Of a DNA stretch of 64,000 bases, positions 2,922 through 57,781 are shown piece after piece. The notes beneath the pieces are model-generated. The model was not told the DNA's origin and did no database searches. It worked only from the letters and a program-made list of their open reading frames with translations. The translations under genes and the position numbers were made by a program. This stretch comes from Psammoneis japonica (Eukaryota): NCBI GenBank assembly GCA_008632985.1, contig QPGO01000001.1:62001-126000 (forward strand), written 5' to 3'. The stretch's first letter is position 1, and each line of letters opens with the position of its first letter.

Positions 2922-3029
2922 AGTGAAGCATGCAAACTACGCTGGTTCTAGCTGCCGGTAGAGGGGGCAACCTGAGTATTTTTGCGAGCTACATGTCATA
3001 TCTTTATTTCGATTTACGCCCCATGAATT

Positions 3030-4790
3030 CGAATGTGAGGCACGTGAAGGCTGAAAGCCTTGAAACGGATGCCAGCCTCATTGCAACGAATGTCTTTCGC
3101 CCAAAACCATGCACTGTCTCTGCCTGAATGAGTGTCAACAACAAACACGTCACCAATGTTGAATGGAATTCACCCAACCTGGTGCAAAAAGTGTTGAAAA
3201 ATCTTGTTGACATTCCAAATCACAATGCTCTCAGCTGCTTCTCAAAAGAAGCCAACAAAATTCAAAGCTCCCAACACCAATCCCGCGCTGCACATGTGTG
3301 CTCCACCACCTTGACATTGACAGGATTTTCTGAGCCAGTCATGTGTCCATCATCTAGCCGCACCACCAAATGAAGCTTTTGTGAGTCGATCGTGGCAAAC
3401 ACCTGATTTTGTGTTGCTTGAGCCACCATCGTCGGGGTGGAAGAACTTGAGATCTTCAACAGCGCAGCCACCGTTTCTGTTGATGCTGTTGAGACGTCCC
3501 TCCAGTGGCTTGTTCACATTGTGCCAAGAGATGAAGCACTCCCCAATCTGAGGGGATTCAGAAGTGTTCCTCTTTTTCCCATGACTCTTGAGCTCAAAAC
3601 GACTGGGAACGATCCAATTGTCTGACCACCGAACTTCAACATCAGGGATCCAGTTGCTGTGCGCTTGAATTGGATGCCTTTGCAGTCACACTTGATGTTC
3701 TTTGCACAGCATTTAGCGCCCATCTCTCCACCAGTCCACATCAACAATGAAATCCTGCAAGGGGAAAGATTTTGTGCCCATTTGAAGGAAAGACAGAAAA
3801 GCCTTGACAATCGCCTTGGAAATGGTCTTTTCAATCTTGGGGCGGACGGCCCCGACAAAGTTTCCAAGCTTCAGTTTGGCATCAGCCTTGCTCATTTTTA
3901 CCTTCTTCACATTGATGATGATTGGATTGACACAGCCACCGGCATGTCCATCACTCAGCTCTAGAACAAGGTCGAGCTTTGTGTGGTGCATCACCGCCAG
4001 GACACCGATCGTCGCAGCACCTTCCATGCAACAAAGCACTCACCAAGAAGAACAGTCATGGTGAACAATCTTTGCTCTTGCACAACATGGGCTGTTTGCA
4101 AGTGAGACAACTTTTTGTGAGAAAAGCTGTGTGTGATGACTCGCTTCTGCCAGAAGATCTGAAAGCACGTGAGGCAAATCATGCCACAGGTGGCGCACTT
4201 GTTTGATTTCTTCAATTTTAGATTTTGAAAATTTGGTGGTGGCCAGCAATTGACAACGAGCACATTTCACATCAACGCACTTTCATTGATGCACTTTTGC
4301 ACAAAATCTCTGCTCAACTGCCCCAGCTCAATGTTGTTTGTTCGTTGGTGTGCAAAACAGGAAAAGACAAGAGAGCTCACCGTCCAGCGGGGTGACAGCC
4401 AGTGGAAGCAAAAGATCTCATGGACCAGTCACTGCCCATGGATGCTGACAAGTGGCAAAGTTCCAATCAGGTGGCTGCCCGCGAGAAACAAAACGCCGCT
4501 CAGGAGGCAGCCCCCGCACCCAAGAAGAAAAGGACAAAAACCGCTCCCACCAAGTGCTTTTCCTTGCAGGAAGGACACGTTCTTTGACATGGATCACAGC
4601 ACCAAAAATCCCTTTGACTGCCGCCCCAAAACAATCCAGCATGTGATCAGGTGCCTGGAGCTGCTCCGTTTTGGTTTTTTGCTGGAGGGCGACTTTGATG
4701 GGTTTTGCCTCGATCAGCTGTTTGTCAAATCCTGGAAGAGAGCACGTCAGACACTGGCGGAGAGAGAGAGAGAGAGAGAGAAACAAAGAG
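3030..4790. other. TpA-depleted degenerate coding-like sequence of unidentified origin, probably a decayed transposon
   Basis: Very few TA; Cys/His-rich broken ORFs on both strands; no recognisable motif; ends in a (GA)n tract. Confidence 0.4.
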
Positions 4791-4828
4791 AGTGACAGAG
4801 GGCGATTGACCTGACGATTGGCCTGGAG

Positions 4829-5477
4829 TGCCACAAGTGGTTAACTTTTTCCGCACCCGCGGGACAAAATTTTTTGTCCCGGCATTTTCTCTAATTAACT
4901 CAAGTGCAATTGTCATTTCATTGTCATTTGCACATTTAATCACATCTTTCCTGGTGTCACATTATTTGAATGGAAAATGTTGCCTTTCCTCTTTGTCAGC
5001 AGCTTCAGAAGAATGACTCGGCTTAACACATTTCGACCCACAGACATTTAGTTTAGACACTTGTGAAGCAGGGTGCACAGCCCTGCTGACAAAACCCATG
5101 CATAATGCAAAACTTTGAACAGGACAGAAGATTTTGGAAATTGTCGCCAAAAGTCACTCTTCCATGGTGTCTACATACGTCCCCAGCATGCATGCGTCTG
5201 TCCGTCACTTTTTTGCACCCCCACTGCCCTGGTCCATTCAGATGTGTCATCCGGTTGTGTGCGTGGCACGGATCTCTTCGCAATTGTCCAAACTGCAGGT
5301 CCAAAGTCTGTCCTGGGGCTTGTAATGCCATCAGACAAAACTGTCACGGTCGAAACAGCACACATTTATTTGCATTTATTTGAGTGGAAAAGTTTTGTTG
5401 TTTGTGCCGGCATTCTTGTTTAAATGGGGCAATCGAGCGAAACCGCGTGGGTGCGGAAAAAGTCAACTCATTTGGCA
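4829..5477. mobile_element. Non-autonomous TIR element, about 650 bp
   Basis: Left TGCCACAAGTGGTTAACTTTTTCCGCACCCGCG is an imperfect inverted repeat of right CGCGTGGGTGCGGAAAAAGTCAACTCATTTGGCA; no clear TSD. Confidence 0.6.
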
Positions 5478-5659
5478 GACCGCACGTTTGCGTCGTTTGG
5501 CTCGTGTCATCGTGTGTGCTGTTTTTCGCGTTTGTTCCAAAAATCAAAAAAGTCTGTCTTTGTGCGATTCCGCCAACCCTGACCCACACTGTCACACACC
5601 ACACACCACACACGCATCGGCTCGCGGTCTTGAACAACCACAACCATGACGCTGACATC

Positions 5660-6010
5660 ATCAACAGCACTGCGAATCAATGACAACAACAATGACAACA
5701 ACGACACCATGACGTTTGGAGGATTGTCTGCCTCGTGAGCAGAACAAATCAATGTTGAGTGTTGTTTCGGATGCGTGCTGTGATTTGATTCTTTGTGTGT
5801 TGTGTTTCATGCGAGTCGAATGCTGCCGATTGAGAAAATCATTGACACGCTCCTGCTGCTGCTGCCGCATGCACGCCATTGTCATGGGACCGCCGCTCGG
5901 CTGCTGCTGCCAGTTTGTAAGAAAGAAACCGAGTGCTCGAGATGTGAAGGAGCATTTGTGTTGGAATTGTTGGAACCATGGTCACTCAAAATTAAAACCA
6001 ATGTCATGGC
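5660..6010 (+). pseudogene. IST1: Decayed copy of IST1 5'UTR, exon 1 and intron
   Basis: GAATCAATGACAACAAC...CCATGACGTTTGGAGGATTGTCTGCCTCGTGAGCAGAACAAATC aligns to the reverse complement of 28590-28665 (GAATCAATAACAATAAC...CCATGTTTGGAGGGTTTTCTGCC...CCTCGTGAGTAGAATATATC). Confidence 0.75.
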
Positions 6011-6199
6011 AAACAACTCACAGGCACGGTGGTGCGAGCGCAGCATGGTGCAGATGGATGCAACGAACGATTTGTTGCGATGCGATTTTTTTTGCATGTT
6101 CGAATGTTGTTTTGCGGTTGAAAAAAGGAAGAATGGCGACAAACTGTCTCCGTTGCGTTGAGTGGCAATGGATGGACATGTCTTGGTGTGGTTGGACGT

Positions 6200-6790
6200 G
6201 ATGGAACATGACGTCAATGGATTGACCAAATGCGCGCGGATCAAGTTTGCATCTTTTTAGCATGACGGCACAATGCACATGAAGCATTTCGGAAATCCTT
6301 TAAATGGCAAGGCCAAGCATGATTGCTTTGGGGATTCCATGGGTTTGGTCACTCGACATCCTTGAGTTGTTCCTCAAGTGTTGTTGGCATTGGACAAAGT
6401 GGAGACGTTGGTGACACGGTTTCGGCATTTGAGTGCAGTTTGTCAATGTCAAGATGGGAGACTCTTCTTCCAGGTGATTCAATCTTTGAGCATGTCGACA
6501 ATGTTGGGATTGTGTTTGCGGACATGCTGTGTCTCTCATGACAGTGGTTTGCTCCTGTTGGCAGGCACAGTGGCAAGGATCGTTTTGCTTTGTGACTTGT
6601 GCCGCTTGATGTCGTCGTGGAGTCAGCGTGGCCAAACTGCAACTTGGCAAAAACTTTGCTTGGTCAGTGTCGTTGAGCAGAAATGGAAACGGTTGTGGCA
6701 GTCGGAAATCATTGCCATGATGTAAATGGTGTGTGCCAAGTCGGTCAAGTTAGAATCTTTCAGTGCGACAGCAATGCAGACGATGTTTCC
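6200..6790 (+). pseudogene. Decayed fragments of an FG-GAP propeller gene (last blades, present twice)
   Basis: VAVGNHCHDVNGVCQVGQVRIFQCDSNADD versus LAVGSHYHDVNGLTSAGQVRIFQHDSNADE in the 9527-12133 gene; a second match CATGACGTCAATGGATTGACC...ATCCTTTAAATGGCAAGGC at 6207-6313. Confidence 0.8.
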
Positions 6791-8619
6791 ATTCCTGCAC
6801 TCTTGTCATTTTTCGCCCAGTTGCTTTTTTGGGGGTTTCTAAGGAACTCCAGACTGACTGCTCTCAACACTCTAGATGTTTCCATTCCCGCACTCTTTTC
6901 ATTTTTCGCCCAGATGCTTTTTTTGGGTTTTCTGAGCAACTCTGCTAGACCAACTGCTCTCAACTCTAGCCACAGCTCCAGCTGGCCCCATGTAAAGAGC
7001 AACATCATGTCCCCAGCTGCTGGCAGAGCCACTCTCTCAGATGACAACACAGAAGAGAGAGCACTTTAGAGAGACAACATGGAGGATGCACCACTGGTCT
7101 GGAGTGAATGAACTGTGGTCACCCTCTCCAGAGTTCCCAGTGTGGCAATGGTGGCCACAGCAACAATGCAGAAGCAGTGATTTGTCAAGGTGGCATGGAC
7201 ATCAGATGGAAGAAGCCACCTCCAATGTGTGACAAAGTGAGAAATGCTGGTCAGGTGGTTGTGCCTGTTCATTTTGGTGGCTTCTTCTTGCCTTTTGAGG
7301 CTGTTGCCTCTGTGCATGACAAGGCACTGGCACTCACCAAATACAATGCTTGTTGAGAGTGGCTGGTGCCTCAGCTGCAAAAGCTGGACTGTCCAAAAAA
7401 TGAAAAAGAAGTGCAGCAGGAATGGCTGTGTGCCACAGCAAGTTGGCACTTGCCATTCTCAGCTGCACTGCACCATTGCTTGTTTGTTGCCAATTGCCAG
7501 GAGGATTGAAGCAAGACAATGTGCTCCCCTGCATGACTTCTCCACCAAAACAACCATTTTGCTGAGTTTGCAAGCAGGGGGTGCGCACATTTCAACTTGT
7601 GTTTTTTGCCACAGTTCCCATTCAATTGACATTGTCAAATGCATTGAATGGCATCATGATTGATCAACAAAAGCCACAACAAATGGGGTGCAAATGTGGT
7701 GTGTTGCCCATTTTTGTTGCGGTTGGTTGATTGTGTGGCTCCACATGTCCCTGCACACAGAAGGTGCAGAAATGAACAAGAGGACAAGAGGGGAAGCATG
7801 GGAAATCCCGGTGTACAAAAATTTTCATTCATGTGTTGAGCACATGTGTGGCATGGTGTCATTCATGGGAATTCCCCAGGAAATCATGCTTCCCACAGAA
7901 ATTGCGGCAAAATGTTGCAACCCCGGGGAATTTTGGGGAATCCCACGGCAAAACCAAACTGGGGAGATGTGCAGTGTGCTGCTGGGTGGAAGAGGATGAA
8001 GTTGACAAAAGGCTCTTAAATTGCACAGGAAAGAAGCCAGAGGGTGGCAAATGGGAGCTTCAAGTGTGTTGAATGCAGTGCTGGTGTGGCTGTCAGAAGG
8101 ACACTTGGATGCATGATGGACATGCAAAGGCAAAGCAGCTGCATGGGAATGCTGCAAAAGCTTCAGCTTGCAATGTTCTGAGTGCTCCAACAGCAGAAGC
8201 AGCAGAAGCAGCATTGGCACCTGTCACATTTTTCAGGAGACAGTGCCTGGCTCAACATGGTCTGCCAAAGGTTCAGTGGAGTGAGTTTTGTTCATCTGAC
8301 AGATGATGAGTTGAAGCTGAAAGTTGACAAGAGGCTTTGCAAGGTGTGCAAAGCAAGGCTCTGGAGCCACAAAGAGGAGCAGCTGCCAGCACACCCTGCA
8401 AAAAAGGGCTGTTTGGTGTGGCTGTTTGCACCCAAGAACCTTTCAAGGCACTCCATCAAAGTTCTCAGTCTTGTGCCAATGACTGCACTGGTGCCATGCA
8501 ACCGGCCTTCTTCTGCATCCCAACCAAGAAAGCTTTGGGTGGGCACTTGATTTTTGAGCATGAGCCACTCAAGACAAAAGGGTTGCACCTGTCTTGATGA
8601 CAAATTCTTGCACTTGTTT

Positions 8620-8995
8620 GAAGTGGCAACAAGAATTGTTGGCAGAACACACAAAATTGTTGGAACACTCCAAAACATGTCCACTCGATTTGGTCTCATG
8701 TGTTTCCACACTGTTTTGTGGGCGTGCAACCATGTTGACATTGCAGAGATCCTGCTCATTAAAAAAAACAATTTCGTTCCAAATGCAGAAAAGACTTTGA
8801 ATTACGGTGCCCTTGGAAAAGATTTGCAGCTTGCAAAAACTGGATTGGAAGCCACACGTGTCTTGGTTGGACAGTTCTCTGGCACAAACGCGTGGCGGCA
8901 CCTGTTGGACATCATGCTGCACACAAGTGGCGGGTTGAATGGGCATGTTGGGAACTTGCTGTGGACAATCTTCAGGGCAAAAGAGCAAGAAATGT
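8620..8995 (+). pseudogene. IST1: Decayed, internally deleted copy of IST1 coding exon 2
   Basis: ELLAEHTKLLEHSKTCPLDLVSCVSTL / WACNHVDIAEILLIKK / AAPVGH versus intact ELLAERIKLLEHSKTCPPDLVSCVSTLIWACDYVDIAELPLIKK / AAPVGY; frameshifted. Confidence 0.92.
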
Positions 8996-9526
8996 GGCTT
9001 CTGTCAGGGGAGGGGGGGATGGGCAGCACGGTGGCACAAAAGTGTGGTGCAAGTCTTCCACGCTCCGCTTCATCATGCAGCACAGAGGGTGGGCTGCTGT
9101 GGCCGGAGCTTTGTCGCACTGGCACCAGATCTGCCAGATTCTGCCCAGCATCAGGAAACACATTCATGATCATTTTCACGATTGAATGAAATTGCATAAA
9201 AAGCCATTGTGATCACATGCTTGTGTGTTGACTGCATGAAACAATTGAACTCACCGTGCAAGTGCATGATGTGACGACAGACGAGTCGAGGTGGTCGCGG
9301 TTCATACAGCCGCGCCGCGGTTCATCAGTCTTGCTTCAAGTTATTCGCTGATGATCTATTGTTGGCAGATTTCCCGCGTTTCATCCGTTCTTGCTTCAAG
9401 TCCATCGCTTTCTGCGGATGCTCCAGCAGCTTTAACAGAACATGCAGTGGCAACTGCAAACTCTCACTCGTGCTGCTTGTGACCATTTGTCCACACATCT
9501 TTCTTATTGTAGAACTGCTTTCCCCC

Positions 9527-12133
9527 ATGATGAAGCGTTCGAGCGACGACGATGACGACATGTGCGACAGGCGTGGTGTTCGCGGCCGTGCCAGCAGCAG
9601 GAGCGGCAATTTGAAGGAAGATGAAACGGATAAGCAGTTACAAGAAATCGAAGAAACAATTCCTACGGGAGAAACGACCGCCGCTTCTTCTCATACGAAA
9701 AAGAAGAAGAGACAAACTGCTCATCGCCGCCGTCAAGAGCAGCAACAAGCAGAAGGAGGAAACTTGGCGGGTGAAGAACAAAAGGAAGAAGAACTGCTCG
9801 TTGAGTCGGATGATACTGATGAAGACATCGGCGCCACGACTGCCACAAACTTTACAAACGATGATGCAGGTGCGGGTACTGCTGGCGCGTTTGCCATTGG
9901 TCAAGGAGGACGACAGGTGCGAAGAGGAGGAAGTGACGCTGCTGACAATATTTCGCTCTTTTCAGAACTCGAAACGATACGCTCCAGTAGTTCAACGCCT
10001 CCTCCTCCAGAGGAGGCTGCTCGCGCTGACAATGATGGTGATGCTCCACTCGTTGTAGCTGAATTGGCAGATCAATCGGGACATGTTGCAGCGGAGGATT
10101 TCATAGCGCTTCAGGAACAAGTTACTAGTCTCCAAGCAGGAATTTACCAGGCACAGGCTGTACGGGCGGTTCCTGCTTCTGTTGATGGCGGACAGAATGA
10201 GCAAGTAAATGAAACAAGGAGAATTGATGGTGATGATGAGAGTGCTGAAGAGGAACCTCGTTACAAGCGCCGTCGCAGACGATTCATTATTCTGGTTGTT
10301 GTATTGTTGGCCATTGCTGCGATTGTCAGCATTCTTGCTGGAGTAAAGCCATGGGATAATGGTGGTGGAGGGAGCCCTGCTATTCCGCCTACTGTTGCAC
10401 CCGCTTCGGAGACCCAACAGGCCACCGGATTGGTGCTGAATTTGGTTGGTTTAGATACCGAGTTTGACGAAAGCGATTCCGAGTTGTGGGCCACAGCAAC
10501 CAAGGCGTTTGTCGAGGAATATTTTAACACTCCTAGTCGACGTGGTCTTGGCAGTCTCTTGATCCGCAATTTACAAGTATCGAACGTACAAGACGTTGAG
10601 ACGACACTGCAAGTTACTAACACTATTGTTGCTCAAGATGGTAATGGTGCAGAGCCCTCCCTTCAAGTCGTGTACAGCCAAGCCGTCACGTATGCTATTG
10701 ACACCAGCAACAACGATTACATTTCCATGGAAGTGTTGGCGACCGAGCCATTCAAGACATCAGCAAGGAGGTTGGCCTATGTGAATGACCTCCAGGTTGC
10801 GGGTACCAATGCCGGAAGCGATGTTTTCGACAATTTGATTGGCACTACCGAAGTATCGACCAATGCAGATACACTTGCTCCCGCCACTCCAGCTCCATCT
10901 CCTTCTCCAATCATTGTGCTTCCAAACGGTCCGTGGAATCCCGTCGGCCAAGTCTTGCACGGCAAAGCCGCAATTGATTGGTTTGGCAATTCCGTATCCT
11001 TGTCTCGTGATGGCAGTGTAATGGCGATTGGAGCGGATCAAAGGGGGTCTTCCAATCCCGGCTATGTTGTTGTGCAACGATACAATCTAAGTAACAAACA
11101 ATGGATACAAATTGCCCAAGAATTGGTGGGACAAGCCGGCGGCGACCGTTTTGGATTGTCAGTTTCATTAAATGGTGATGGCACGATTCTTACCGTTGGA
11201 GCTCCATGGAATTACAGTGGCGGAAAGTCTGTCGGTCAAGTTCGCGTTTTTGAGTACGACTCTGTATCGGATCGTTGGGTCCAACTCGGCAGCGACATTC
11301 TTGGACAAGACGCTCGTGACCAATTTGGGTTTTCCGTGTCGCTCTCGGACGCGGGAGACATTCTTGCCGTGGGAGCTGATTTGGATGACACGGAAAACGG
11401 CTCTGGTTCCGGATCGGTTCGATTGTTTCAATATAACCGCAGCTCTTCATCCTGGAACCAACTCGGGCAAACACTCATTGGACAAGCTACCGCTGATTAT
11501 TTTGGCATTTCTGTTTCCTTGAATGCGCAGGGAACCATTGTTGGCGTTGGAGCGCATTGGAATGATTCGGGCGGAAACAATGCTGGTCAAGTGTCGGTGT
11601 ATGAATACAATTCTGCCTCGTCAAAATGGGATCCATTGGGTGACTCAATCAATGGACAAGTCTTACATAGTTTGTTTGGATATTCTGTTTCTCTTGACGA
11701 CAGCGGTTTGATCGTTGCTGCAGGTGCACATGGTGGTAGCACCAACGAGAGAGTTTCGGTTTATTCATACGACCGCTCGACTTTGACATGGAATCAACAT
11801 GGCCAAACTCTCTTGACACAACAGCCTGGCAACAATTTTGGTTGGTCAGTGTCATTGAGTGGCAATGGAAATGTCCTGGCAGTTGGAAGTCATTATCATG
11901 ATGTCAATGGATTGACCAGCGCCGGTCAAGTCCGAATCTTTCAGCACGACAGCAATGCAGACGAATGGAAGCAAGTTGGTGATCCTTTAAATGGCGAGGC
12001 TGAAGATGACTATTTTGGAAGTTCCGTGTCGTTGTCGGCCGACGGGAGTGTCGTTGGAGTTGGTGCTCATGAAGCTGATATCAATGGCGACCGGTCCGGA
12101 TCCGCGTATGCATTCACAGTGAACAACAATTAA
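9527..12133 (+). CDS. Single-pass membrane protein: acidic N-terminus, TM helix, SEA-like stalk, 7-blade FG-GAP (integrin-alpha-like) beta-propeller
   Basis: Uninterrupted ORF; RRRRRFIILVVVLLAIAAIVSILAGV TM; seven FGxSVSLxxxGxxxAVGA repeats; first ATG of the ORF at 9527. The SEA-like call is from recall of pattern only. Confidence 0.9.
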   Translation: MMKRSSDDDDDMCDRRGVRGRASSRSGNLKEDETDKQLQEIEETIPTGETTAASSHTKKKKRQTAHRRRQEQQQAEGGNLAGEEQKEEELLVESDDTDEDIGATTATNFTNDDAGAGTAGAFAIGQGGRQVRRGGSDAADNISLFSELETIRSSSSTPPPPEEAARADNDGDAPLVVAELADQSGHVAAEDFIALQEQVTSLQAGIYQAQAVRAVPASVDGGQNEQVNETRRIDGDDESAEEEPRYKRRRRRFIILVVVLLAIAAIVSILAGVKPWDNGGGGSPAIPPTVAPASETQQATGLVLNLVGLDTEFDESDSELWATATKAFVEEYFNTPSRRGLGSLLIRNLQVSNVQDVETTLQVTNTIVAQDGNGAEPSLQVVYSQAVTYAIDTSNNDYISMEVLATEPFKTSARRLAYVNDLQVAGTNAGSDVFDNLIGTTEVSTNADTLAPATPAPSPSPIIVLPNGPWNPVGQVLHGKAAIDWFGNSVSLSRDGSVMAIGADQRGSSNPGYVVVQRYNLSNKQWIQIAQELVGQAGGDRFGLSVSLNGDGTILTVGAPWNYSGGKSVGQVRVFEYDSVSDRWVQLGSDILGQDARDQFGFSVSLSDAGDILAVGADLDDTENGSGSGSVRLFQYNRSSSSWNQLGQTLIGQATADYFGISVSLNAQGTIVGVGAHWNDSGGNNAGQVSVYEYNSASSKWDPLGDSINGQVLHSLFGYSVSLDDSGLIVAAGAHGGSTNERVSVYSYDRSTLTWNQHGQTLLTQQPGNNFGWSVSLSGNGNVLAVGSHYHDVNGLTSAGQVRIFQHDSNADEWKQVGDPLNGEAEDDYFGSSVSLSADGSVVGVGAHEADINGDRSGSAYAFTVNNN

Positions 12134-12383
12134 GCCCGTAGTTTTGCATTCATCGCGAACTGCATTGACGGCACACCATTTCCATGCTTCTTTTTACCCT
12201 ATCGAGATGGTTGACTGCCGTATCTTCTTTTCGATTTTCGAACTTAAAGTAGGCCAAGTGATCACAAGGGAACAGATTAGAATGATATAATGAATGTACT
12301 CGCTACTAGCTAGCCACCTTAGAGAGAAAGAACGAGTGCTAGGTCACGAATTCTCGCTCCTTTCATATAAGTTCCAGAACGAA

Positions 12384-16263: not shown

Positions 16264-16499
16264 TACTGCTAGAGACAGAGAATAGTCTTGCAACATGCAA
16301 AGCAACGCACGAGCGAAATGCTACAATACAAAACAGAACTCTTTTTTGGTACTTGTTTTGTTTTGTTGTTGACACTCTCTAGAGCATTCGTCGCACCCAT
16401 GCTCAAAAACAACATTTTTCCATTCACAGACAATGAGGGAACGAACCAACTCTTATATTCCGACTCGGTCTCTTCTAAAGGTTGATTCCAAACGTATCT

Positions 16500-18000
16500 G
16501 CGGTGGTGACATTGTGAGATCCCAACTTGTTGACCAGCGACGTGGGGGCATGCCGTTTTTGCGTCATGCCAAACGACTGTCTTGCGACTGCTCTACAACA
16601 TTTCCAATCCACGCCGCTCACCAAAGTTTTTTCAACAAGTTGCTGTGAGAATATAGCATGGATCGTTCTTGTGACATGGTGTTGCATGGCGGGTGCAGGG
16701 GTTGTCATTCTCTGTTTCTGGCAGAAGTGGATGCAGTGTTGAATCATCACCCATCCTCTCAACTTGAGATTCTTCTTGAGATCTTGCACTTGGTGCTTGC
16801 CTGCTGCCAGACAGGCGAGTGCCTTCTGACTCCCTCCTCTTGTGCGAGCTTGCGCCTGAGTTTCAACTGAAGGATCCAGTCCCTTAAGCTCATCCATTTT
16901 TGTCATGCATTGGTTTTCCACTGCAGCAGCAACATTCATCAACCATTCTTTTGGGGCCAACCCATCTCATTGCCAGTGATGATCATGCCTGTGCATGGCG
17001 CACTTCCCAGCATGAAGCAATGACAACGCAACACATGCCAGCCAACAGCCATGCATGTGTGCATGCAGCAAAAAGCAGAAAGCATGGCAATCTGACTGTG
17101 GCAATGAGATCCATCAAATCAAGAAACACAGCCACTCCAGAGCCAATTAACAGGTCGTTTGGTTGGGCTAAACTGACAAACAGAAATGAGCCAAGAGCAG
17201 CAGCTCATTGGTTTCCTTTGTGATGGAACATGGCCAATGTGGGCCAGCAGGAGAGTCCTCTCAATTTTTCATGCTCCAAAAGCAGAGGATGTCAAAGAGA
17301 GGAGTGCCTGGAGTGCATGGCTCAGCTCTCAATTTGTTTGAGCAGACTGACAATTGTGGCGCTGGTTGCGGCAAATGCTGAAAAAACAGTCACAGAATTC
17401 TGGGTTGCAGAACTCTGCATCAACACATGGAGGCAGGGCGCCAAAATCAGAAAAGTCAAAAGCATGCTGCGGCAACTGATCAAAGCTGCTCTTGAGTGCC
17501 TTTGTCCTGGCTTGACATGCTGCAGCTCTCCAAGTCAGCAATGCATTTGCAGCAAGCCCTTTTGACAATCATGCTGCATCTGCTGTGAGTGGCTTGGCCT
17601 TGTTGCTGTTGCTTGGGTCAGCACAACAGAGCCGCTGTGAAGCCTTGCACTGGCTGACCACTTCTCCTTGAACTCTGCTGTTGCACACACCCACAGATGC
17701 TTGAGCAGCACAGCCAGGGTGCTCTCAGGTTCCCACTTGATTTCATCAAAAGAGCTCATTTGTTTTTGCTGTGGCTCACAGTTGGTGTGCACCCTTCCTT
17801 TTGCTTGTTGCCCTTCAAAAAAAGTGCTCTCTGCAACATTTGCGCTTGTTGATGTGTGTCAAGCAGGGACATGGCTGTGCACTGTTGGCAGGAGCTCCAA
17901 AAGAGCACTTGTTGTTGCACCCTCCAACTGCCTCAGGTGGATGACCTTGTCTTTTGCATCTGGTGACAGGACAGCAGCTGTTGCACAGGCCAAGGATAAT
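16500..18000 (-). other. TpA- and CpG-depleted degenerate coding-like block, probable decayed transposon
   Basis: Successive broken minus-strand ORFs rich in Cys/His; almost no TA between about 16660 and 17990; no family motif recognised. Confidence 0.4.
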
Positions 18001-19339
18001 GTGCGGGTGGATGGCTGGTTAGATGTAGCAAAATCACCTGATTTTGGTAAATTGAGAATCCCGATATCCGGGTTACTTTGGGCGGGTTGGACAGCCACCA
18101 CCTCCTGGTTACTTGAGGTTCACACATCATCACGCTTTGTATTACGTACAAAGCTACGCGTTGTCACGGTACATGACGTGGCTTTTTGAAGTTGCATGCA
18201 TCTCATGCAACGCTCAGAACAACAAAAAACACCGCATCTCCCACCATGGGACTTGATCGTTTGTAGATCGACGGCCGCAACGTCGATCAAGATGAGAGTG
18301 TAGTCACACCACTATTAAACAGTGCTTATTTCGATGGTTGTGCTGGATTTCTCGGCAATGTTGACTGTTGTGCCGTATTTAGACACACCAACAAGCAGTG
18401 TGTTTGCTGACTTTTTTCTGCAGGGCTCTCACGACCGCTACGTAAATAAGTTTACAATCACTGGGTTTATCTCTGCTGTAGATGTAATGATTAGTATCTA
18501 AGGAATACACACGCATGGGCAGCATCATTTTTGTTTCTCTGCTGTTTCTCATGACAGATGCAGAAAATGACATTCTGATTTCCAACGTCGACAATGCACC
18601 GTGTGCGATATAGAAAAGGAATAATGGATTTTTTTTTTTCAAAGAGAGAAGAGGAGCTAATTTATGTAGTAAATACAGTTATTGGACGCTGCAAACAATT
18701 GTTGGCACCTTGTTTGGAATGTTTTTTTCTTCCCTATCAAAGCGACAGTAGCAATCATAGCACCTTGCTCATTTTCGCCCCATGGTGTCAATGCAGCTTG
18801 GCTGCGTGATGCAGCACGTGGTTTGCTTTATCACGGGACAGTGCGTGAAACCAAAAGTGCAATGGACGGGAGCTCCGAACCATCGGCGATCGGATCTGGA
18901 ACCAGCTCGTCGAGCTCGTTCCAAATCCGTGCTCAAATGGATCGGAGCGGCTGTCCTTCGTTGCGTCTGTACGTCGTCCGCACGGAAACTAATTTTACCA
19001 CCATTGGACACTCTAACTGGCCAACCACCCGTGCAGCACCAGTGTGGAAATGATGGAGGTGTGCTGCAGCAGCAAAGTGCAAGAGCATCGGCCAACAAGA
19101 CACACGTCATCGATGGGGTCAACGTTAACAACAAAAACAGAAAAGATTTTCATCAAGTGCCACCCCAGCACTCTTCCAATGTAAAGCCACTGTTTGAGTG
19201 GGTGTTTTTGCTTGTCAAAAGTGGTCACTCTGAGATGTGAAAATGTGTTGATCACATGACTGATGGTTGTCCTGCACACATGATGATGTCTTCATTTGTG
19301 ATTCACTTTTTTGGGCATGCGTTTTCAGTTTGAATGGCT

Positions 19340-19438
19340 CTAGAGAGGAGAGAGAAGGGCAATGGCTAGGTAGAGCAGAGAGCCAGCTCTCCAGCAAGAG
19401 AGAGAGAGAGAGAGAGAGAGGCGAGAGAGAGAGAGAGA
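19340..19438 (+). repeat. (GA)n-rich microsatellite upstream of TPP2
   Basis: Direct reading. Confidence 0.85.
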
Positions 19439-23505: not shown

Positions 23506-23933
23506 ACGTGTATTGAGGGGTGCAGTTTCGCTGCACAGTGCAGTTGCATCATAAAAAGTGAGAAGTAAGTACTCCGAGTACCAAGCAGCAGTTATGTGTC
23601 TATCGGAACACATGGAGCTCCTCGCGGAAAGTTGAAGGTGACTTAGAGCACCATGCGTGCTGTTTGCAAAGACTGAGGGCTTGAACCTTACACAAATAAA
23701 CACAAGTAAATGTTATCTTGAGTTAGCTAGTAGTGATGGTTTACTCTGAGCCTGTGGTTGCTGTTCCCATTATTTTGCACCCCTGTGGTAGGGGAGAATG
23801 TGATGATGTCATGGTTACATGGCAGATTTATATCTTGTGCATCACATTTTTACACAATTGTCCTCACATTTATTTGTGCATTTGTACACAAATGCCAACA
23901 GCAACAGGAAAAATCCTGAACCACATTCTCCCC

Positions 23934-26042
23934 TAAAACTCTGACCTCCAAAATCCGGAGGTACGGAAACGCACTTTTGGCAGCTCTTTTCTTCGCACAA
24001 AAAACATGCTCGACCATGATGATGCCTGGTGGTTCTTCCCCACCACCTTCCCAGGACGCCGATCCCACTGATGCCATTGCCAATGACACTGACACAACAG
24101 GCAATGTCATCACTCCGGTTTTCATGGGTGTGACACATGCAAAATAAGATGGCTGCAAACTCACACTGTTGTTTGTGCGCTCCACTGCCTCCCACAGATG
24201 CCATCACAAATTCCAATTCCGCACCTGCGTTTTGGGCCCCTTGCATGCCCAATGCTGTTGCTCCCACCTTGCTGCCACAGGCACTGTTGACACTGTCATT
24301 GTCTTTTGCCAACAACATCCACAATGAATTGCTGATGACTCACGCTTCTTTCATTCTTGCCCCACTGCCTCCCAAAGATGCTGTCAGGAATGCAAACACC
24401 GCACCGGCATTTGGGTCCACTGGCATGCCTGATGCTGTTGCTCCCACCCTTGCTGCCGCAGGCACTGTCAATGCTGTCACTGTCTTTTGCCCATGACGTC
24501 CACAATGAAATGCCAATGACTCACACTTCTTTCATTCTCGCCCAACCGCCTTCCAAAGATGCTGTCACGACCACAAACGCCGCAACTGCGTTTCGGTCCA
24601 CTGGCATGCCCAACACTGTTCCTTCCACCCTTGCTGACACAGGTGCTGTTGACGCTGTTGTTGTTTTTGCTTTGGAAGGAGGACAATGGATGATGGTGGA
24701 AAAGGAAACCCTTGGCATGGCCTGCTGATGGACGAGTGTTTGTGTTGTGGCTGTTGTGCTTTCTGTGTTTGTTCATGGTTTTCTGGCATTGGTTCAACGC
24801 ATCCTCTGGAGCACTTGCAGCCCATCAGGCAAAGACATGGCTGTCAACTTTTCAGATGTTGCCAGCATCAACAGCTGTGTTGCACAAGCATTCAGTGGGC
24901 TCTTTGCCTGCCCTTTGCTGGCCTGCAACATCAATGGACATGAATGGTGCCTCTTTGTCAACTCTTGAGTGCAGTCTGATTTTCAAAATGTGCAGACATG
25001 TGATGCAGTTCCCTGTAAATTAGAAACCTGACATCATTCAGATGGCAGGCATGCTTTCACATTTTTTCAGTTGGAGAGGTCAGCGAGTTGGCATTTGATT
25101 GCAGGCAACTTGGCAAGGTTTCAAGTGGTGCGTGTGACTTGGACACTGCTCTGCTTGCCAGAACTGGCTCATTGTCTGCAATTCCATGAGACACCACTCT
25201 TGCTGTTTGAATTCCACGTGCAATGTGCAACGTGCTGTTTTTGCAAGTTGCCAAAAAATGGAAGCAGTTGGCAACGTGCTTTTGGCAAACACTCGCCATG
25301 TTTGTTGCTGTTGGACCTTCTCAAGCAGCACCACATGGACAGCTGTGCTGCTGCTTTGCATGCCGGCACCTTCTCTGCCTGTGTTCCATTGGCTGTGTCC
25401 TCCTTCATGTTGCTGCGGCTCATCTTGATGCCTGTTGTTGGCTCAGATTGGCTCCACTGGGCTCTGGGTGAATCTCAATCACCTCCAGATGGAGGAGGTT
25501 CTGCTTGGGATTCAACCTGAGAAAAGCTGTCACCACACCCCCCAGATGCTCCTCTGCCATGCCCATGCCCATGCAAGGAGCATCGACCAGTCCATCAGCA
25601 CTCGCTGATCCTGTGCCTCCGTCGTTCCAAGCAGAATCGCCTCTGCTGCCTCCAGGCCTGCTGCTTGCATCCACATCAGCCAGAGCATGAGTGGGGCTGT
25701 TTCTCCTTGTTTTGTTGCATTGTGCTTGATTGCAGTGCTCAAATCACAAATGGCGGCAATGTCGTCCACCGTCAATTTTGGATCCAGCGAACAGAAGCCC
25801 AAGTCTTCCGGATGGCAAATCAGCTGTGTTTTTGGGTGACGAGACAGTGGGTGCAACAGTGCCGTCCAACACAGGAGGGACTGCCACATCAGATGTGGCA
25901 GGCGGGGACACGTCGGGTGGTGTGGGGGGTGGAGAACGTGAGGTCGTCATGGTCGAGTCGTCAAAACGCGTGATGTTTTGGTGTGTGCGCAGTCTTCCAA
26001 AAAGTGCGTTTCCGCACCCCCGGATTTTTGAGGAGAGTTTTA
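23934..26042. mobile_element. Decayed TIR DNA transposon, about 2.1 kb; TIRs may extend further outward
   Basis: Left TAAAACTCTGACCTCCAAAATCCGGAGGTACGGAAACGCACTTTTGG versus reverse complement of right TAAAACTCTCCTCAAAAATCCGGGGGTGCGGAAACGCACTTTTTGG; interior TpA-depleted with a broken minus ORF from about 25950. Confidence 0.7.
24182..24670 (+). repeat. Tandem repeat, about 2.7 x 180 bp
   Basis: CCACTGCCTCCCA(C/A)AGATGC at 24182 and 24362, variant at 24542. Confidence 0.85.
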
Positions 26043-26529
26043 TCATACCGTACAGTGGGGGAGCTGTGGAATGGGGATTTTTACTTATGGAATATACACA
26101 TGCATCAGATACTACTGATTTAAATACACAGATAAGATCATATAAGATTCAATATTGTTGTGGTGTTCTGCAAGAAATATTTCGTTTAAACCTGAATCGA
26201 CTTTTTTAATATGTTCCTTATTAACGGCTTTATACAATCATTCCCATGCTATCGAATTTTGCCTTCAAATTCATGCGTTGGAATGGCTCCAAATTTTGTT
26301 CACAAGACTCTTTCCCAACGCCTCAATAAAACAGAAGAGCCAAGACGACTTGACACAATTTCTGCCAACTTCATTTCTTGAATTAGCCAAACGGTTAAGG
26401 TGCTGGTGTGTGTTTTGAATCGTCTTTGTCCCTGACGAGACTTGTCTCCTTTGCTGTAAACTCCTCACACGTGCCACACATTTTATCACTCGCTATTCTC
26501 GCTGCATCCACAGATTTTTGCGAATCATC

Positions 26530-27415: not shown

Positions 27416-28396
27416 TCACTTGTTGAGTTTCGCAAATCGTGCTTCCAATTCGGCATAGGATGAATTGACATTCGTTGTTCCACCGCCACCACCAGTACTA
27501 GCGCCGCCATTGTTATTACTACTCTCGTCGTCGTCGTTGTCATTCTTCTTGTCGCCATTGTCATTGTTTACGGGTGCCGAGGGAATGGTAGGTACAAAGA
27601 TGTCAACATCTCCAAAGTCATTATCATTGTCATTGTTACTCGTAGTAGTACTCGGAGCCGTGGGCGGGACAAAGACATCTGCCGAAGGAACCGTAGGAAT
27701 GTCCCCCTTGGGTGGTGGTTGATAGTTGATTTCTTGATCGACATTTTCTTGTCCCACAACAGCGGTTCCCAACAAGCCCGTTCCACCGGCTACTTGGACG
27801 CTATACCCCACTGGCGCCGCCATGGGTTGTGCCGGAGCACTGTCGGATTGAGACACGCGTGGTTTCCAATCCACTTCAAATAGCTTGCAAATCTTTTCCA
27901 AGTAAGTCTCCACCAAGGCTGCTGCGGGTGGTTGAACCGACAATTTGGAAACGACACGTTCATTCAACACTCCACCCACATTGTTCAAAGCCGCATCTTC
28001 AAAGTCTTTTCCGTATTTAGAACGAAATTGTTTCTTGATGAGAGGCAGCTCGGCAATATCGACATAATCACATGCCCAAATTAATGTCGATACACACGAT
28101 ACCAAATCGGGTGGACACGTTTTGGAATGTTCCAATAATTTGATGCGTTCCGCCAACAATTCACATTCGAGTTGCATAATTTCATATGCTTGAATGGCAT
28201 TATCTTCTCGAATCAGAGCTTCGGCACGAATTTTTGCCAATTCCTCCTTGGGCGGATCTTCGCTCAACATGACAGCAACCGCACGCATTTGTTGTTTGGC
28301 GACGGCCGTTTTTTTATTGGATGCAATTTGAAAACGACTCGAGGCCATTTTTAATTCTGTAGGAGTAGAGTATGAGAGAGAGAAGGAGTATGAGAG

Positions 28397-28440
<44 letters not shown>

Positions 28441-28641
28441 CATGCATGTATGTATGAATTACAACAAAAGCATGTTGGCGGTGGCAACAGCGCGCGTGTG
28501 AATTTCAATAATAGTTTCACAATCGGTGCTCGACTTATGCAACAACATTAAGAATCAACCCCAGCATGTCAATGTCAAGTATAATAACGATATATTCTAC
28601 TCACGAGGCTTTAATTTCTTGGCAGAAAACCCTCCAAACAT
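27416..28641 (-). CDS. IST1: IST1, ESCRT-III-like regulator of Vps4
   Basis: Exon 1 28605-28641, intron 28357-28604 (GTGAGT..CAG, contains (CA)n/(CT)n), exon 2 27416-28356. Joined N-terminus MFGGFSAKKLKPQLKMASSRFQI; AKIRAEALIRED; C-terminal MIM-like YAELEARFAKLNK. Confidence 0.95.
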
Positions 28642-28791
28642 GGTAGTTGTTATTGTTATTGATTCGTGCTGCGTTGGCTGTTTTTCAAGTTTTTTTTAGT
28701 TGTGGGATTTTCAGCGAGCATCGAGGTGATGATTCGTGATTGGAATTGCACGACTCAAAAATCGTCTGCGAACGCAAGGCGAACGGACGCG

Positions 28792-28794
<3 letters not shown>

Positions 28795-28835
<41 letters not shown>

Positions 28836-28862
28836 CTCTCGCTCTCTCTCTCGCTCTCGCTC
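28795..28862 (+). repeat. (CT)n microsatellite at the gene/repeat border
   Basis: Direct reading. Confidence 0.9.
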
Positions 28863-28899
28863 TGCATCCACCGCATGCTCTCCATTGAACAAATTACCC

Positions 28900-30900
28900 C
28901 GCACAGCAGTCGCGTGCTCTAGAGGGCAAAGACTGGAACTAAAACATGCAACATGGTGCCACCATTTCTCAGAATTGTGATGCTTGTCTCGGATGGACTT
29001 CGGTCTGCTCATCATTTCACCGACGTAAAGCACACATCACCAAATTTCACATCTCCACATGGCAAATTCTTCAGCCCCCTCAAGTCAATGAAGTGGACAA
29101 TGAATCGGCTTGATCCAATTTGCTCTCTCCGGCCATGTTTGGCCGCGCTGATGTGACAAGGAAACCCTGACAACCTGCGCCCATCATTCTAAGCTCATGC
29201 CTTGGACCTCGCAAAGCTTCCATGCCTGCTTCACAGCCACAAACTCAGCTCCAAAGACTGAGGTCTCAATGGCACTCTGTCACTCAGAAACCCAGGCAAC
29301 CAATGCCATGTTTAAATGTGCAAAGCAGCCCACATGGGAGCACCTTGTCAGCTTGTCATTGGCATGGTTGGAATGCACAAACAAGTGCAGGTCAACATCT
29401 TCACCCAGAGCTTCTGGTGCATTGGGCAGAACAGCTTCCTTCACGTCCCCACAAAATGCCTTCCTGCCGCATTCCTTGAAGTCAGACATGTCCATTTCTG
29501 GGTGTGTCAGATCAAACACCAGCCTTGCATCATGTCTGGCCTTGAGGCATCCACACACATGCAGGATGGCCTCAAGATGGCCCTCCCTTGGTGCAGTGAG
29601 GAATGAGGCAAGCTGTGAGGTGTGCAGCTGGAAGTGCTTGCACAGCAGCGGGTGCCAGGCACCCTGCAAAAACACCAGAGTTGTTTCTGAGCAACTGGTC
29701 TGAGGCCATTTTGTCTTTTGGAGCCAAAGTGCAGACATGGCATTGGTGGTGCCAGAGATGCCTCAAAACCATGTGAACTGATGAGCCAACAAAAATGCTT
29801 GCGCATGATGATGCATCAGAGGAAGGAGCTGTTTGGGTTCAGTGTCCATGTGGTTTTTCTGCTTGTTTCCTGCAGCTTTTTGTAATTGTCATTTGGGTTG
29901 TGCAACATTTCCACCTGCTTCCACTGGCGCAAGTGCATGCTGAGCTGTCCAGAGAATGCCATCATTTTGTTCCCTTGTGTGTGTGTGCCACTCACACAAG
30001 GGAATTGTCAGACTAAAAGAAAAGCCACAAAGTCACCTTGGCCCAGCCAGCCCTCTCTGCCATGTCTGCACAGGATGGGCATTTTGAGCCAAAGGCCATG
30101 GACAAGCAAAGGTTGCTCCATGCTAAAAACACAACACTTGAAGAAATTGCTTTTGTGAAACACATGCTGGAGCTGGGAGAAGTTTGTGACAAGGAGCTCT
30201 CCGGAAGAAGAATTGGTGTGTGCTGCAGCTGCAGCAAAAAGTTGGCTGCTGCATGACCAATGTTGGCAAGCTTGAGTGGCCAGATCCCACTCCTGTTGAA
30301 TCTCAGGCACAAGCTCATGTGAAAGGAGGTGGCCAGGAAATGCCCACCCATCTGGCGGCAGCATGCAAGCAAGTGCGGTGCCTCACTGGAAGAAGATCAA
30401 GCTGAAACCAAGGGCCTGTGCAATGCCTCAAGAAGAGGCCAAAGTCAAGGAAGGGAGATGATTTGACGCTGCACCCACTCCTGCCAGAGTCAAAGAATGA
30501 CATCCCAAGAAGAAGCTGATTCAAAGATGGGTGATGACCCGATGCCACAGCTGCTCCTGCCAGAGCCAGAGAGTGAAAACCCTGGTGCCCCACCAGCCAG
30601 GCAACAGCAGCATCCAAGATGTGCTCTCCCATCTGTGTCGTGAGATTCAGCTCTAGGTGGGACCTTGTGTGGCTGGACTGGTCTTTGGACATGTGCCACA
30701 TGTTGCTTGCTCACACTTGTGTGTGTGTTCTTCCACAAAATTTCCCGTGCTCCTTCCTGCTCTGAGGGGGGGGGACAAAGGCTTTTTAATCCATGCATTT
30801 GTGAGAGTCAAAATCAGCCAGGTGTTGGTTGTGGCATCTGTTCTGTCATGTTCTCAATGGGAGTCATTCGGGCCCTCACAGCCATTGTGTGTAAATCACA
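28900..30900 (-). mobile_element. Heavily decayed Ty1/copia remnant (RT end and RNase H recognisable at 29170-29640)
   Basis: ASFLTAPREGHLEAILHVCGCLK...VFDLTHPEMDMSDFKEC...LFVHSNHANDKLTRCS...ETSVFGAEFVA, homologous to 63540-63960. Outer limits approximate. Confidence 0.8.
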
Positions 30901-31055
30901 TGGTAGAGCGCCAGAAATGGCTGTCGAAATCGGCACAAAACGTAGAGCAATCCGTAATCATAGAACTCGCAAACGCGCAAGCATTTGTGTATGACCAATA
31001 AAGCAAGGGCCAAAATAGTGGTTTGTTTGAAAATATTGACTTTACTGTTAAGCAG

Positions 31056-38634: not shown

Positions 38635-39049
38635 GCAGTGGTCACCTCCATTTTGTGGGAAAAAAACCGTTGAACAATTGGGTGGATGGATGTGTTTCAA
38701 TGATCATGTCTCTCCCTCAAACACCGTCATCCGAACAAACCCTCAGTGTCTTGCCCCCTTTTCACACACGAGGAATTTGGCTCTGCTGTTCGTTTTCTCC
38801 GACAACGCGATTTGAGAAAAAACCGTTAAATGTGTGCATTCACTGATGAGTTTAACGGCTGTTTTCCCAAATCGCGTCATCGGAGAAAACGAACAGCAGA
38901 GCCAAATTCCTCGCACATGAAAAGGGGGGCAAGACACTGAGGGTTTGTTTGGATGACAGTGTTTGAGGGAGAGATGTGATCATTGAAACACATTCATCCA
39001 CCAAATTATTTGACGGTTTTTTTCCCACAAAATTTGGGTGATCACTGCT
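38635..39049. repeat. Foldback inverted repeat (MITE-like), about 195-bp arms with about 20-bp spacer
   Basis: Arms align end to end; differences are mostly CA/TG/TA/CG swaps. Confidence 0.93.
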
Positions 39050-39779
39050 CATTGCGTTAAAAGATTCGTAACACAACGGATGATTTTCGGCGAAAACATT
39101 GCCGTCATTTGGATGTCACCTAAATGTGTCTTTCTGCGATGCCACTTGGCAGGTTTTCTACCTGCAAAAAAATCTCTGTGTGAATCTGCTGACGCACAAT
39201 CAGTGTTGAGTCTGCTGAGGAAGTTTGTGACACATGTCCCATGAGGATTTGAGTGCCCCTCAAAAAACCATTTAAATGTTCACACTCTAGAAGCCTGCAA
39301 AAGTCAATCCATCCAAGTGTTTTTGTTAAAATGCTGTGCACTAAAACACACATAAATTGCATTCAAAATCCGATTGTCTTTTGTGCATCACTGGAACACG
39401 TCATCTTCATCCCCATCACCAGAATTTTTGGTTGTTGCACACAAGAGCATCATGAGGCCTCCCGACCACTGGCATGATTGACGTTTGCATTTCAACCATG
39501 AAAGATGAGAAGCAGCAACTCTCAAGAGCACTGGTGGTGAGTTTTAGACACTGCAGAAACAAAGGGAATGGAGAGAGCAAAAACAATGTAGCAGCACACG
39601 CCTTGAGCACCGCAGATGGGATTGACATCGTCATTCTTTGAAAAGACCAATCAAAATGCTGCGAAGCATTCAGAACATTTGTCAGCTCAAGAATGTCAAT
39701 GTGAACAACTGCGTGTGACAAAATGATGGGAAAGCTCACATTCAGCCAACCTGATTGTTGCGTTCGACAGTGCGGTGAT

Positions 39780-57732: not shown

Positions 57733-57781
57733 GTGGTGATGATCGAGCCAAAACCTGCTGCAGCGCGCATGGGGCAAAAAG

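Follow-up and report, generated by a model that had tools for sequence, protein, structure and literature searches.

The IST1 gene and its decayed copy

The analysed window is a stretch of 64,000 nucleotides (nt) from the diatom Psammoneis japonica, a eukaryote (NCBI GenBank assembly GCA_008632985.1, contig QPGO01000001.1, positions 62,001–126,000, forward strand). An intact IST1 gene, a helicase gene and two paralogous genes with FG-GAP_2 repeats are located in it, separated by long blocks of DNA in which the dinucleotide TA is nearly missing (Table 1). Two pieces of a decayed IST1 copy lie within one of these blocks. An earlier note, made from the letters alone, had described the copy as a duplicate in which TA was replaced by CA or TG, with an untouched parent gene 20 kb away. 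The loss of TA in the copy was confirmed and is statistically solid, and all the pairs of parental and copied strings quoted in that note were present in the window. The evidence comprises one gene pair in one window and is a historical trace, not a measured rate.

Table 1. Genes, pseudogene pieces, repeats and TA-poor DNA of the window (aa, amino acids; o/e, observed/expected ratio of a dinucleotide; MITE, miniature inverted-repeat transposable element).
Feature	Position	Strand	Description
Parent IST1 gene	27416-28641	minus	intact, two exons and one intron
Parent IST1 exon 2	27416-28356	minus	941 nt; 310 aa from ATG at 28348; TA o/e 0.51, CG o/e 1.16
Parent IST1 intron	28357-28604	minus	248 nt, GT..AG, frame-preserving, predicted from the sequence; 17 TA, o/e 0.82
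Parent IST1 exon 1	28605-28641	minus	37 nt from ATG; predicted
IST1 pseudogene, 5' piece	5662-5882	plus	parent 28676-28464; 0 TA, CG o/e 0.98
IST1 pseudogene, exon-2 piece	8633-8955	plus	parent 28162-27765; weak homology out to ~8628-8993; TA o/e 0.08
Intervening TA-poor DNA	5883-8632		2.75 kb; TA o/e 0.08, CG o/e 0.32
TA-poor, CpG-poor, CpA/TpG-rich intergenic block	3016-9304		6.3 kb, between two divergent host genes
DEAD_2/PDZ helicase gene	646-2936	minus	left neighbour of the block
FG-GAP_2 repeat gene	9275-12130	plus	right neighbour of the block
FG-GAP_2 repeat gene	55312-58038	minus	second intact paralog
Decayed FG-GAP fragment	6207-6347	plus	resembles aa 875-920 of the neighbouring FG-GAP_2 repeat gene
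Second decayed FG-GAP-like fragment	6613-6784	plus	aa 841-897 of the gene at 9275-12130
93-nt tandem duplication	6782-6964		after the second FG-GAP-like fragment
MITE-like multi-copy insertion	4845-5465		17-19-nt terminal inverted repeats; flanks TTAA left, TCAA right; 14 TA, o/e 0.30
TA-poor blocks	3001-4960, 5181-9420, 16481-18060, 23881-26080, 28701-30940		
TA-poor blocks (continued)	32141-39060, 39341-48600, 48801-51960, 52841-54620, 58721-63980		
Tandem arrays in TA-poor DNA	33620-36262, 52994-53724, 46538-47365, 40127-40676, 24178-24670		periods 179-201 nt

The protein of the parent gene matched the Pfam domain Ist1 with an E value of 1.4e-43. Its best relatives among 276 matches were diatom IST1 proteins with 63–78% identity, including those of Seminavis, Nitzschia, Mayamaea, Grammatophora and Odontella, and none of the proteins listed was identical to that of the window. 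The reverse complement of the gene was compared with the window by blastn, and aa 63–202 of its protein by tblastn. Parental positions 28162–27998 matched 8633–8801 of the copy (78.7% over 169 nt, E 4e-34) and positions 27902–27765 matched 8812–8955 (73.0% over 148 nt, E 1e-15). The protein segment matched 8633–8974 with 39% identity (E 4e-18). The score determined for the 5' piece with the parent was 101, whereas 200 shuffles resulted in a mean of 21.9 and a maximum of 37, and the scores of 48 other TA-poor segments of the window did not exceed 33.

The start codon with about 35 nt in front of it, exon 1, and the intron from its GTGAG donor through the first ~140 nt are represented in the 5' piece, whose exon 1 was altered by an insertion of 3 nt and a deletion of 14 nt. 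An in-frame TGA occupies the position of parental G189 in the exon-2 piece, which also contains many small indels and a net deletion of about 85 nt (parental 27997–27903 against 8802–8811 of the copy); parental aa 203–310, the final third of the protein, are missing. Both pieces follow the order of the parent and point the same way. In the place of 296 nt of the parent (28463–28168), which comprise the 3' intron sequence and about 190 nt from the start of exon 2, the copy has the 2.75 kb of other DNA at 5883–8632. Pfam gave no Ist1 match on the open reading frames (ORFs) of the copy.

The two pieces are thus the remains of one old, partial, truncated and non-processed IST1 duplicate. As the sequence next to the untranslated region (UTR), the splice donor and intron sequence are retained, the copy was made from genomic DNA, in line with the duplication at the DNA level proposed earlier. 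The accompanying statement that the copy keeps the intron holds for the 5' part with the donor; the 3' part has been lost. The homology reaches the intron and the 5' flank of the parent, therefore the copy derives from this lineage's own gene.

Substitutions in the copy and their polarity

The main alignment of parent and copy, scored in a transition-tolerant way, resulted in 497 ungapped columns, 385 of which were identical. Five of the 26 parental TA fell in gaps. The 21 aligned ones had become TG (9), CA (8) or another dinucleotide (TC, TT, TT and AA); none was kept and none had become CG, so that 17 of 21 ended as CA or TG. When the retention of all 16 dinucleotides was compared, TA was the lowest and CG the next (9 of 28), and the remaining 14 were retained at 40–83%. 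No TA was kept under two neutral scorings and MAFFT either, and the CA and TG outcomes then amounted to 13/18, 15/22 and 16/26. Within its aligned segments the copy has a single TA, which sits at an indel, and the complete stretch 8630–8955 holds two.

TA sites were more diverged than other A/T sites: transitions were determined at 18 of the 49 A/T sites inside TA and at 26 of the 225 outside it (Fisher p 6.5e-5). Changes of any kind at the latter sites numbered 38 of 225. By arithmetic from these counts, about 69% of the TA would be expected to survive, and the probability of retaining none of 21 is about 2e-11. The copy also carries approximately 17% of ordinary divergence in addition to the indels, which agrees with the earlier remark that other substitutions are present and the copy is fairly old.

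The TG and CA outcomes were balanced. This balance and the lack of CG would be expected if the hits strictly required TpA and could fall on both strands of the duplex, because one hit destroys the context. A strand-specific preference for 5'-TAY, suggested by the contexts of surviving TA (see below), was not supported by the IST1 pair: four sites were for it, four against it and six uninformative, and seven were dropped (four that were not CA or TG and three beside gaps).

A decay of CpG to TpG or CpA, absent from the earlier note, was observed alongside the loss of TpA. The 28 aligned parental CG resulted in 9 CA, 4 TG and 6 other dinucleotides, and 9 were kept. Transitions were found at 13 of the 58 G/C sites in CpG and at 16 of the 165 other G/C sites (p 0.02).

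The polarity of the changes was read at the amino-acid level, with the nearest ortholog proteins being at most 78% identical and the silent sites saturated. The set, 60 diatom orthologs taken from the top of a list of 120, was applied to the 28 codons at which parent and copy differ in the amino acid. The orthologs favoured the parent at 22 of these, the copy at 2 and neither at 4, and the two columns favouring the copy were weak, with 5 and 2 of the 60 sequences. The residue Y112, whose codon TAC is TGC in the copy, is Tyr in 58 of the 60 orthologs, and Y182 (TAT to CAT) is Tyr in 51. These comparisons support that the changes fell on the lineage of the copy and that the CA/TG state is not the ancestral one.

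A second polarised case was detected in the 446-aa ORF at 44680–46017 (plus strand), which lies in TA-poor DNA. It had 106 homologs (best E 1.6e-52) and aligned with about 35% identity to the C-terminal halves of homologs of 650–970 aa without Pfam domains; Pfam found no domain in the ORF nor in seven of the homologs. The ORF is estimated to be too long for chance even if TGA is the only stop. It contains a single Tyr, 0.2% compared with 2.4–3.4% in the homologs. At the seven columns where the homologs have Tyr, the ORF has Cys three times, His once, Phe twice and Tyr once. The Tyr to Cys and Tyr to His replacements are the expected trace of TAY changing to TGY and CAY. One of the homologs bears the Atlas label 'Crinkler' (score 0.97), a lead only, which was not supported by Pfam. 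The decayed FG-GAP fragments offered another comparison of parent and copy. The parental TA were few there, and the seven dinucleotide columns gave mixed outcomes; of the ten CpG common to both intact paralogs, six were CA or TG and three were kept.

The TA o/e values of the parent gene, 0.51 for the coding sequence and 0.82 for the intron, are inside the range of its orthologs, which was 0.26–0.85 with a median of 0.61 in 68 orthologous stretches of metagenome contigs. The stretches were collected with an alignment of 20 IST1 sequences, whereas a single-protein query gave none. The parent is flanked by two TA-poor blocks, 23881–26080 and the one from about 28700. On the upstream side, TA-poor DNA starts 60–250 nt before the start codon, with the last dense TA at 28697. 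On the other side there is an abrupt switch at 26041, where 1020 nt without TA are followed by TA every few bases. The parent is thus spared even at the presumably neutral sites of its intron. As the intron is TA-normal, selection on the parent cannot account for the asymmetry of parent and copy. The earlier claims that the parent was untouched and that only one copy was hit, unlike in fungal repeat-induced point mutation (RIP), were borne out.

TA-poor blocks and spared DNA

The TA-poor blocks, defined by at most 4 TA per 400 nt, amount to 39.5 of the 64 kb. Their TA o/e was 0.07–0.17 and that of CA and TG 1.3–1.8, whereas the TA o/e of normal DNA in the window was 0.4–0.8. The blocks contained 229 TA, 3808 CA, 4010 TG and 1354 CG, resulting in a (CA+TG)/TA ratio of 34. 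Three genes have TA-poor DNA next to their 5' ends. Two short stretches inside the second FG-GAP gene (55541–56000 and 57401–57860) also reach the threshold, and an assembly gap of 422 N is located at 61087–61508.

In the block which holds the IST1 copy, the o/e values were 0.04–0.09 for TA, 0.3–0.5 for CG and 1.5–1.9 for CA/TG. TA is dense through 3015 and again from 9305. The edges of the block, 3015/3355 and 9197/9305, are sharp within about 100–300 nt, and further edges were determined at 25021/26041 and 28697/28895. The TA-poor tract is not limited to the 221 + 323 nt of IST1 homology, as it continues for about 2.6 kb to the left, through the 2.75 kb between the pieces and for about 0.3 kb to the right. 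A tract extending so far beyond the shared sequence makes homology pairing unlikely, as had been suggested before. The IST1 copy is a passenger of the block and not a target in itself.

Copy number was assessed from the contigs of one DNA run, using the word depth of each contig and contigs with 0–5 differing letters. The contigs at 5871–6409, 6385–7951 and 7932–9536 had word depths of 70.6, 66 and 62.2, with 0–1 differing letters per piece, and those of host genes had 60.1 and 55. One contig spans the edge of block and gene at 9275 without a differing letter. In the bins over the exon-2 piece (8004–9337), the depth summed at a likeness of at least 80% was 77–81 compared with 62.2 for the covering contig alone; such summed depths are not copy numbers. 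The depths are consistent with a single-copy block in the same genome as the host genes.

The DNA between the two IST1 pieces had no terminal repeats and no Pfam domain, and the search for flanking repeats gave nothing convincing. The MITE-like insertion of the block had a summed contig depth in its bin of 1953 in comparison with about 60 for single-copy DNA. Its unequal flanks are possibly a TTAA duplication with one hit from TA to CA. A second multi-copy stretch, 18005–19342, lies beside the TA-poor block 16481–18060 and is normal in TA (o/e 0.43–0.61). Its summed contig depth was 743–933 with up to 29 contigs, and loose contig ends were found at 18005. These two multi-copy stretches are the least depleted DNA in or beside the TA-poor blocks.

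The intact FG-GAP paralogs share 1.2 kb (10927–12134 and 55308–56512) with 83% identity in DNA and 78% in protein. This pair is longer and more similar than the IST1 pair, yet it was spared, with a TA o/e of 0.44 and 0.35 and a CG o/e of 1.0. Duplication is therefore not the trigger; location is. The earlier proposal that host-gene duplicates are targets as a rule was not upheld, since the FG-GAP duplicates were spared and the IST1 copy was hit with its block. Many further diverged relatives of the FG-GAP region were seen in the contigs of the run, with bin depths up to 3087.

While the TA o/e remained at or below 0.17, the CG o/e was patchy: 0.98 at 5662–5882, 0.10–0.18 at 7001–9000, 0.81 at 48801–51960 and 0.90 at 58721–63980. 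The loss of TA and the loss of CpG are separable processes. Nevertheless, the edges of the CpG decay coincide with the TA edges at 9275 and 26041. The TA that survive in TA-poor DNA are found mainly in YTAR contexts, as judged from the counts in TA-poor and normal DNA, which were 47 and 57 for TTAA, 43 and 65 for CTAA plus TTAG, and 21 and 33 for CTAG. In contrast, RTAY contexts were nearly gone, with 2 and 73 for ATAT, 8 and 150 for ATAC plus GTAT, and 7 and 82 for GTAC. The mixed classes were intermediate.

The TA-poor DNA also contains the tandem arrays of Table 1, and the arrays at 35073–36252 and 52995–53721 are related to each other. A dispersed repeat at 16691–16956 and 30199–30590, on opposite strands, was 90–94% identical in purine/pyrimidine coding and visible only when transitions were ignored. 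An earlier Pfam scan had included 52 of the 154 ORFs of at least 110 aa in the window. In the 105 ORFs of at least 90 aa from the other TA-poor blocks, no credible domain of a transposable element (TE), virus or host gene was detected by Pfam, in a search so insensitive that it missed the IST1 copy. The TA-poor ORF at 49021–49503 (plus strand) had sub-threshold Pfam hits to KOW/SPT5 and SMUBP-2 1B (E 1e-3 to 3e-3) and may be a decayed host-gene fragment. None of 143 bins of 1 kb around IST1 orthologs, from 17 loci of at least 3 kb on diatom-like metagenome contigs, had a TA o/e below 0.25; this sample is gene-dense and has little bearing on repeats.

Explanations and known systems

The results are probably best explained by a TpA mutator confined to certain domains, which would act on non-genic blocks whatever their origin or copy number. 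Such a process would turn A:T into G:C in duplex DNA, only at TpA but on either of the two strands. Its targets would be whatever sits in blocks that are probably silent and cytosine-methylated. The IST1 fragment would have landed in such a block without a promoter and then been hit as a passenger, and the CpG decay would be a second, separable process. The TpA rule would be in keeping with tRNA adenosine deaminases, whose target A34 follows the conserved U33. The mutation probably belongs to the type of TpA to CpA/TpG hypermutation found in Bigelowiella natans. Among the several mechanisms that would be restricted to the local stretch, what decides may be the chromatin or transcriptional state of the block, as the earlier note had also suggested, though too firmly, rather than the recognition of an element. 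This reading is favoured because the TA-poor DNA makes up more than half of the window and is heterogeneous, because it adjoins the 5' ends of genes, and because CpG decay, the usual trace of cytosine methylation, shares two edges with it.

Several observations weigh against the domain-confined mutator. Four of the 21 aligned TA changed otherwise than to CA or TG. TA is still present in the multi-copy stretch 4845–5465 (o/e 0.30) and normal in 18005–19342, which would fit insertions younger than the mutation but equally fits a process that does not hit all the sequence there. No credible Pfam match was obtained with the 70 ORFs of at least 60 aa from 2927–9212, again by a search which missed the IST1 copy. 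The single-copy appearance of the block applies to a likeness of at least 80%, so more diverged copies of the block or a closer parent elsewhere are possible, and the run used for the depths is probably the assembly's own source and hence not independent. Finally, the IST1 pair is single and old, and the process may be extinct here.

The other explanations differ in what they take to be recognised. It is possible, although unlikely, that a transposon or an element resembling a virus picked up the IST1 and FG-GAP pieces in the manner of Pack-MULE or Helitron elements. In that case the element would have been recognised as foreign or repeated and mutated, and host origin and local chromatin would be irrelevant. 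The block is indeed a mosaic of short host-gene pieces, two of IST1 and two of FG-GAP, in otherwise unidentifiable DNA. Its edges are as sharp as insertion boundaries, the retained intron sequence is what capture at the DNA level would give, and in B. natans the process is regarded in the preprint as directed against foreign DNA (Mettrop et al., bioRxiv 10.64898/2026.01.13.699255). However, no terminal repeats were found around the interior segment of the block, and no transposase, reverse transcriptase or viral domain was detected in the 70 + 105 TA-poor ORFs by the same insensitive search. The contigs at 5871–9536 had single-copy word depth, and the bins at 8004–9337 had a summed depth of 77–81 compared with 62.2 for their contig alone. 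TA-poor DNA that fills 39.5 of 64 kb and includes satellite arrays is not one element. Very improbable, and largely refuted, is a RIP-like mutation triggered by homology of duplicated DNA, which the parent would have escaped through chance or selection. The mutated sequence is a duplicate, the changes are dinucleotide-specific transitions, and tandem repeats are present in the TA-poor DNA of the window. On the other hand, the direction polarised by the orthologs is the opposite, A:T to G:C at TpA, and only one partner was hit while the parental intron keeps its 17 TA. The mutated tract runs kilobases past the shared sequence, the more similar FG-GAP pair was spared and the multi-copy stretches were the least depleted. 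In B. natans, moreover, the target is reported to be single-copy (10.64898/2026.01.13.699255).

Mutation of an RNA instead of DNA is hardly credible and also largely refuted. According to it, an unspliced IST1 transcript would have undergone ADAR-like A-to-I editing with a 5'-U preference, followed by reverse transcription and integration. A change of A to G after T does fit the neighbour preference of ADARs noted in the B. natans preprint (10.64898/2026.01.13.699255). But 9 TA to TG and 8 TA to CA changes in one molecule imply both strands, whereas a single edited RNA strand would show just one of the two types. The identical signature is borne by unrelated DNA beside and between the pieces, and the copy has no poly(A) or other mark of retroposition. 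ADARs are not known from outside the animals. There is likewise hardly any probability left for the absence of a special mutator, with selection, GC-biased gene conversion or foreign DNA of another native composition and with its own IST1 homolog in its place. TpA is under-represented in most genomes, and even the normal DNA here is below expectation. Against gene conversion, A/T sites outside TA had no excess of change to G/C (26/225 compared with 16/165 transitions from G/C to A/T). The homology with the parent's intron and 5' flank points to the lineage's own gene and not to foreign DNA. Furthermore, the excess of CA and TG over TA in the TA-poor DNA is 34-fold, and no bin around the diatom-like IST1 orthologs was comparably depleted.

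The DNA that was hit is of certain host origin and appears to be single-copy, from which it can be argued that neither foreignness nor repetition selects the DNA, but position does. A broader proposal is more tentative and, in our judgement, stands somewhat below even chances. Diatoms, like the rhizarian Bigelowiella, may own a TpA-directed A:T to G:C mutator which acts on duplex nuclear DNA in sharply bounded silent domains and erases TpA from everything located there, host pseudogenes, members of gene families and satellites among it, whatever the origin or the number of copies. If so, about 60% of the window has already been converted by it. It would represent a 'scrambling' of silent DNA coupled to chromatin state and shared across the stramenopiles, alveolates and Rhizaria (SAR), not an antiviral device. 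Pairs of gene and pseudogene, as well as members of one young repeat family located within TA-poor blocks or elsewhere, offer natural experiments on how fast, in which context and within what boundaries the process works. For annotation, TA-free DNA has TGA as its sole stop codon, which gives long false ORFs, and real relics are hidden from profile searches.

Among known systems, the copy resembles a non-processed pseudogene in its 5' flank, exon 1, splice donor and intron sequence as well as in its truncation, frameshifts and stop. It differs in the 2.75 kb of other DNA interposed and in a spectrum dominated by two hot dinucleotides, which is not the ordinary one of the genome. Methylation of TEs is known in diatoms from the Phaeodactylum methylome literature. 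CpG decay driven by 5-methylcytosine is in agreement with the 13 of 28 parental CpG that became TpG or CpA in the copy and with a CpG o/e of 0.1–0.5 in much of the TA-poor DNA. It covers the CpG part only, as the loss of TA is more complete and more uniform and was also found where the CpG o/e is 0.8–1.0 (5662–5882, 48801–51960 and 58721–63980). In fungal RIP, C:G is changed to T:A mainly at CpA, which creates TpA; the process depends on duplication, affects both copies and does not go beyond the duplicated segment. What the present case shares with RIP is the inactivation of a duplicated sequence by transitions at particular dinucleotides, which leaves a skew in dinucleotide content. The differences concern direction, as TA is destroyed here and created by RIP, the copies, as RIP mutates both and the parent IST1 is TA-normal, and the extent, as the tract 3016–9304 far exceeds the homology and duplication was insufficient in the FG-GAP pair.

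The only directly relevant report found in the literature was the 2026 preprint on B. natans, and a search for diatoms together with TpA or A-to-G mutation found no report of the TpA to CpA/TpG signature in diatoms. According to the preprint, 231 of the 302 nuclear point mutations in mutation-accumulation lines were in two integrated viral regions, and all but one of the 231 were A to G or T to C, those all at TpA (Mettrop et al., bioRxiv 10.64898/2026.01.13.699255). The larger region is described as single-copy and transcriptionally silent, the mutation rate in affected regions as elevated about 1000-fold, and 124 clusters poor in TpA and rich in CpA and TpG are counted genome-wide (10.64898/2026.01.13.699255). 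An ADAT2-like adenine deaminase is proposed there as the agent, not demonstrated, and the process is seen as a defence against foreign DNA (10.64898/2026.01.13.699255).

The present case differs from the published one in several respects. B. natans is a chlorarachniophyte, whereas P. japonica is a diatom and thus a stramenopile. The target in B. natans, as given in the preprint, is integrated viral DNA. Here it is a pseudogene of a host housekeeping gene and satellite-rich non-genic DNA, in which no viral or TE domain was found by a weak search, and the foreign origin of the B. natans target has no counterpart, since the hit sequence is host IST1 including its intron. The depletion is near-complete here (o/e 0.0–0.1) compared with 0.45 in the region of nucleocytoplasmic large DNA virus (NCLDV) origin reported for B. 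natans. CpG decay is present in the window, and the word CpG is absent from the main text of the preprint, as are the word pseudogene and a comparison of parent with copy. The rate in B. natans was measured in real time; here the historical trace gives a bound, with none of 21 TA kept against the 69% or so expected. As far as the preprint describes the process, the two systems agree in the dinucleotide, in the same two products without double hits, in the confinement to delimited nuclear regions and single-copy DNA, and in clusters poor in TpA and rich in CpA and TpG as the long-term trace; some TpA-poor coding sequences of B. natans also bear host-type Pfam domains. The kind of mutation has thus been described already, and the IST1 pair adds a clean polarised case of parent and copy on host DNA in a second, distant lineage.

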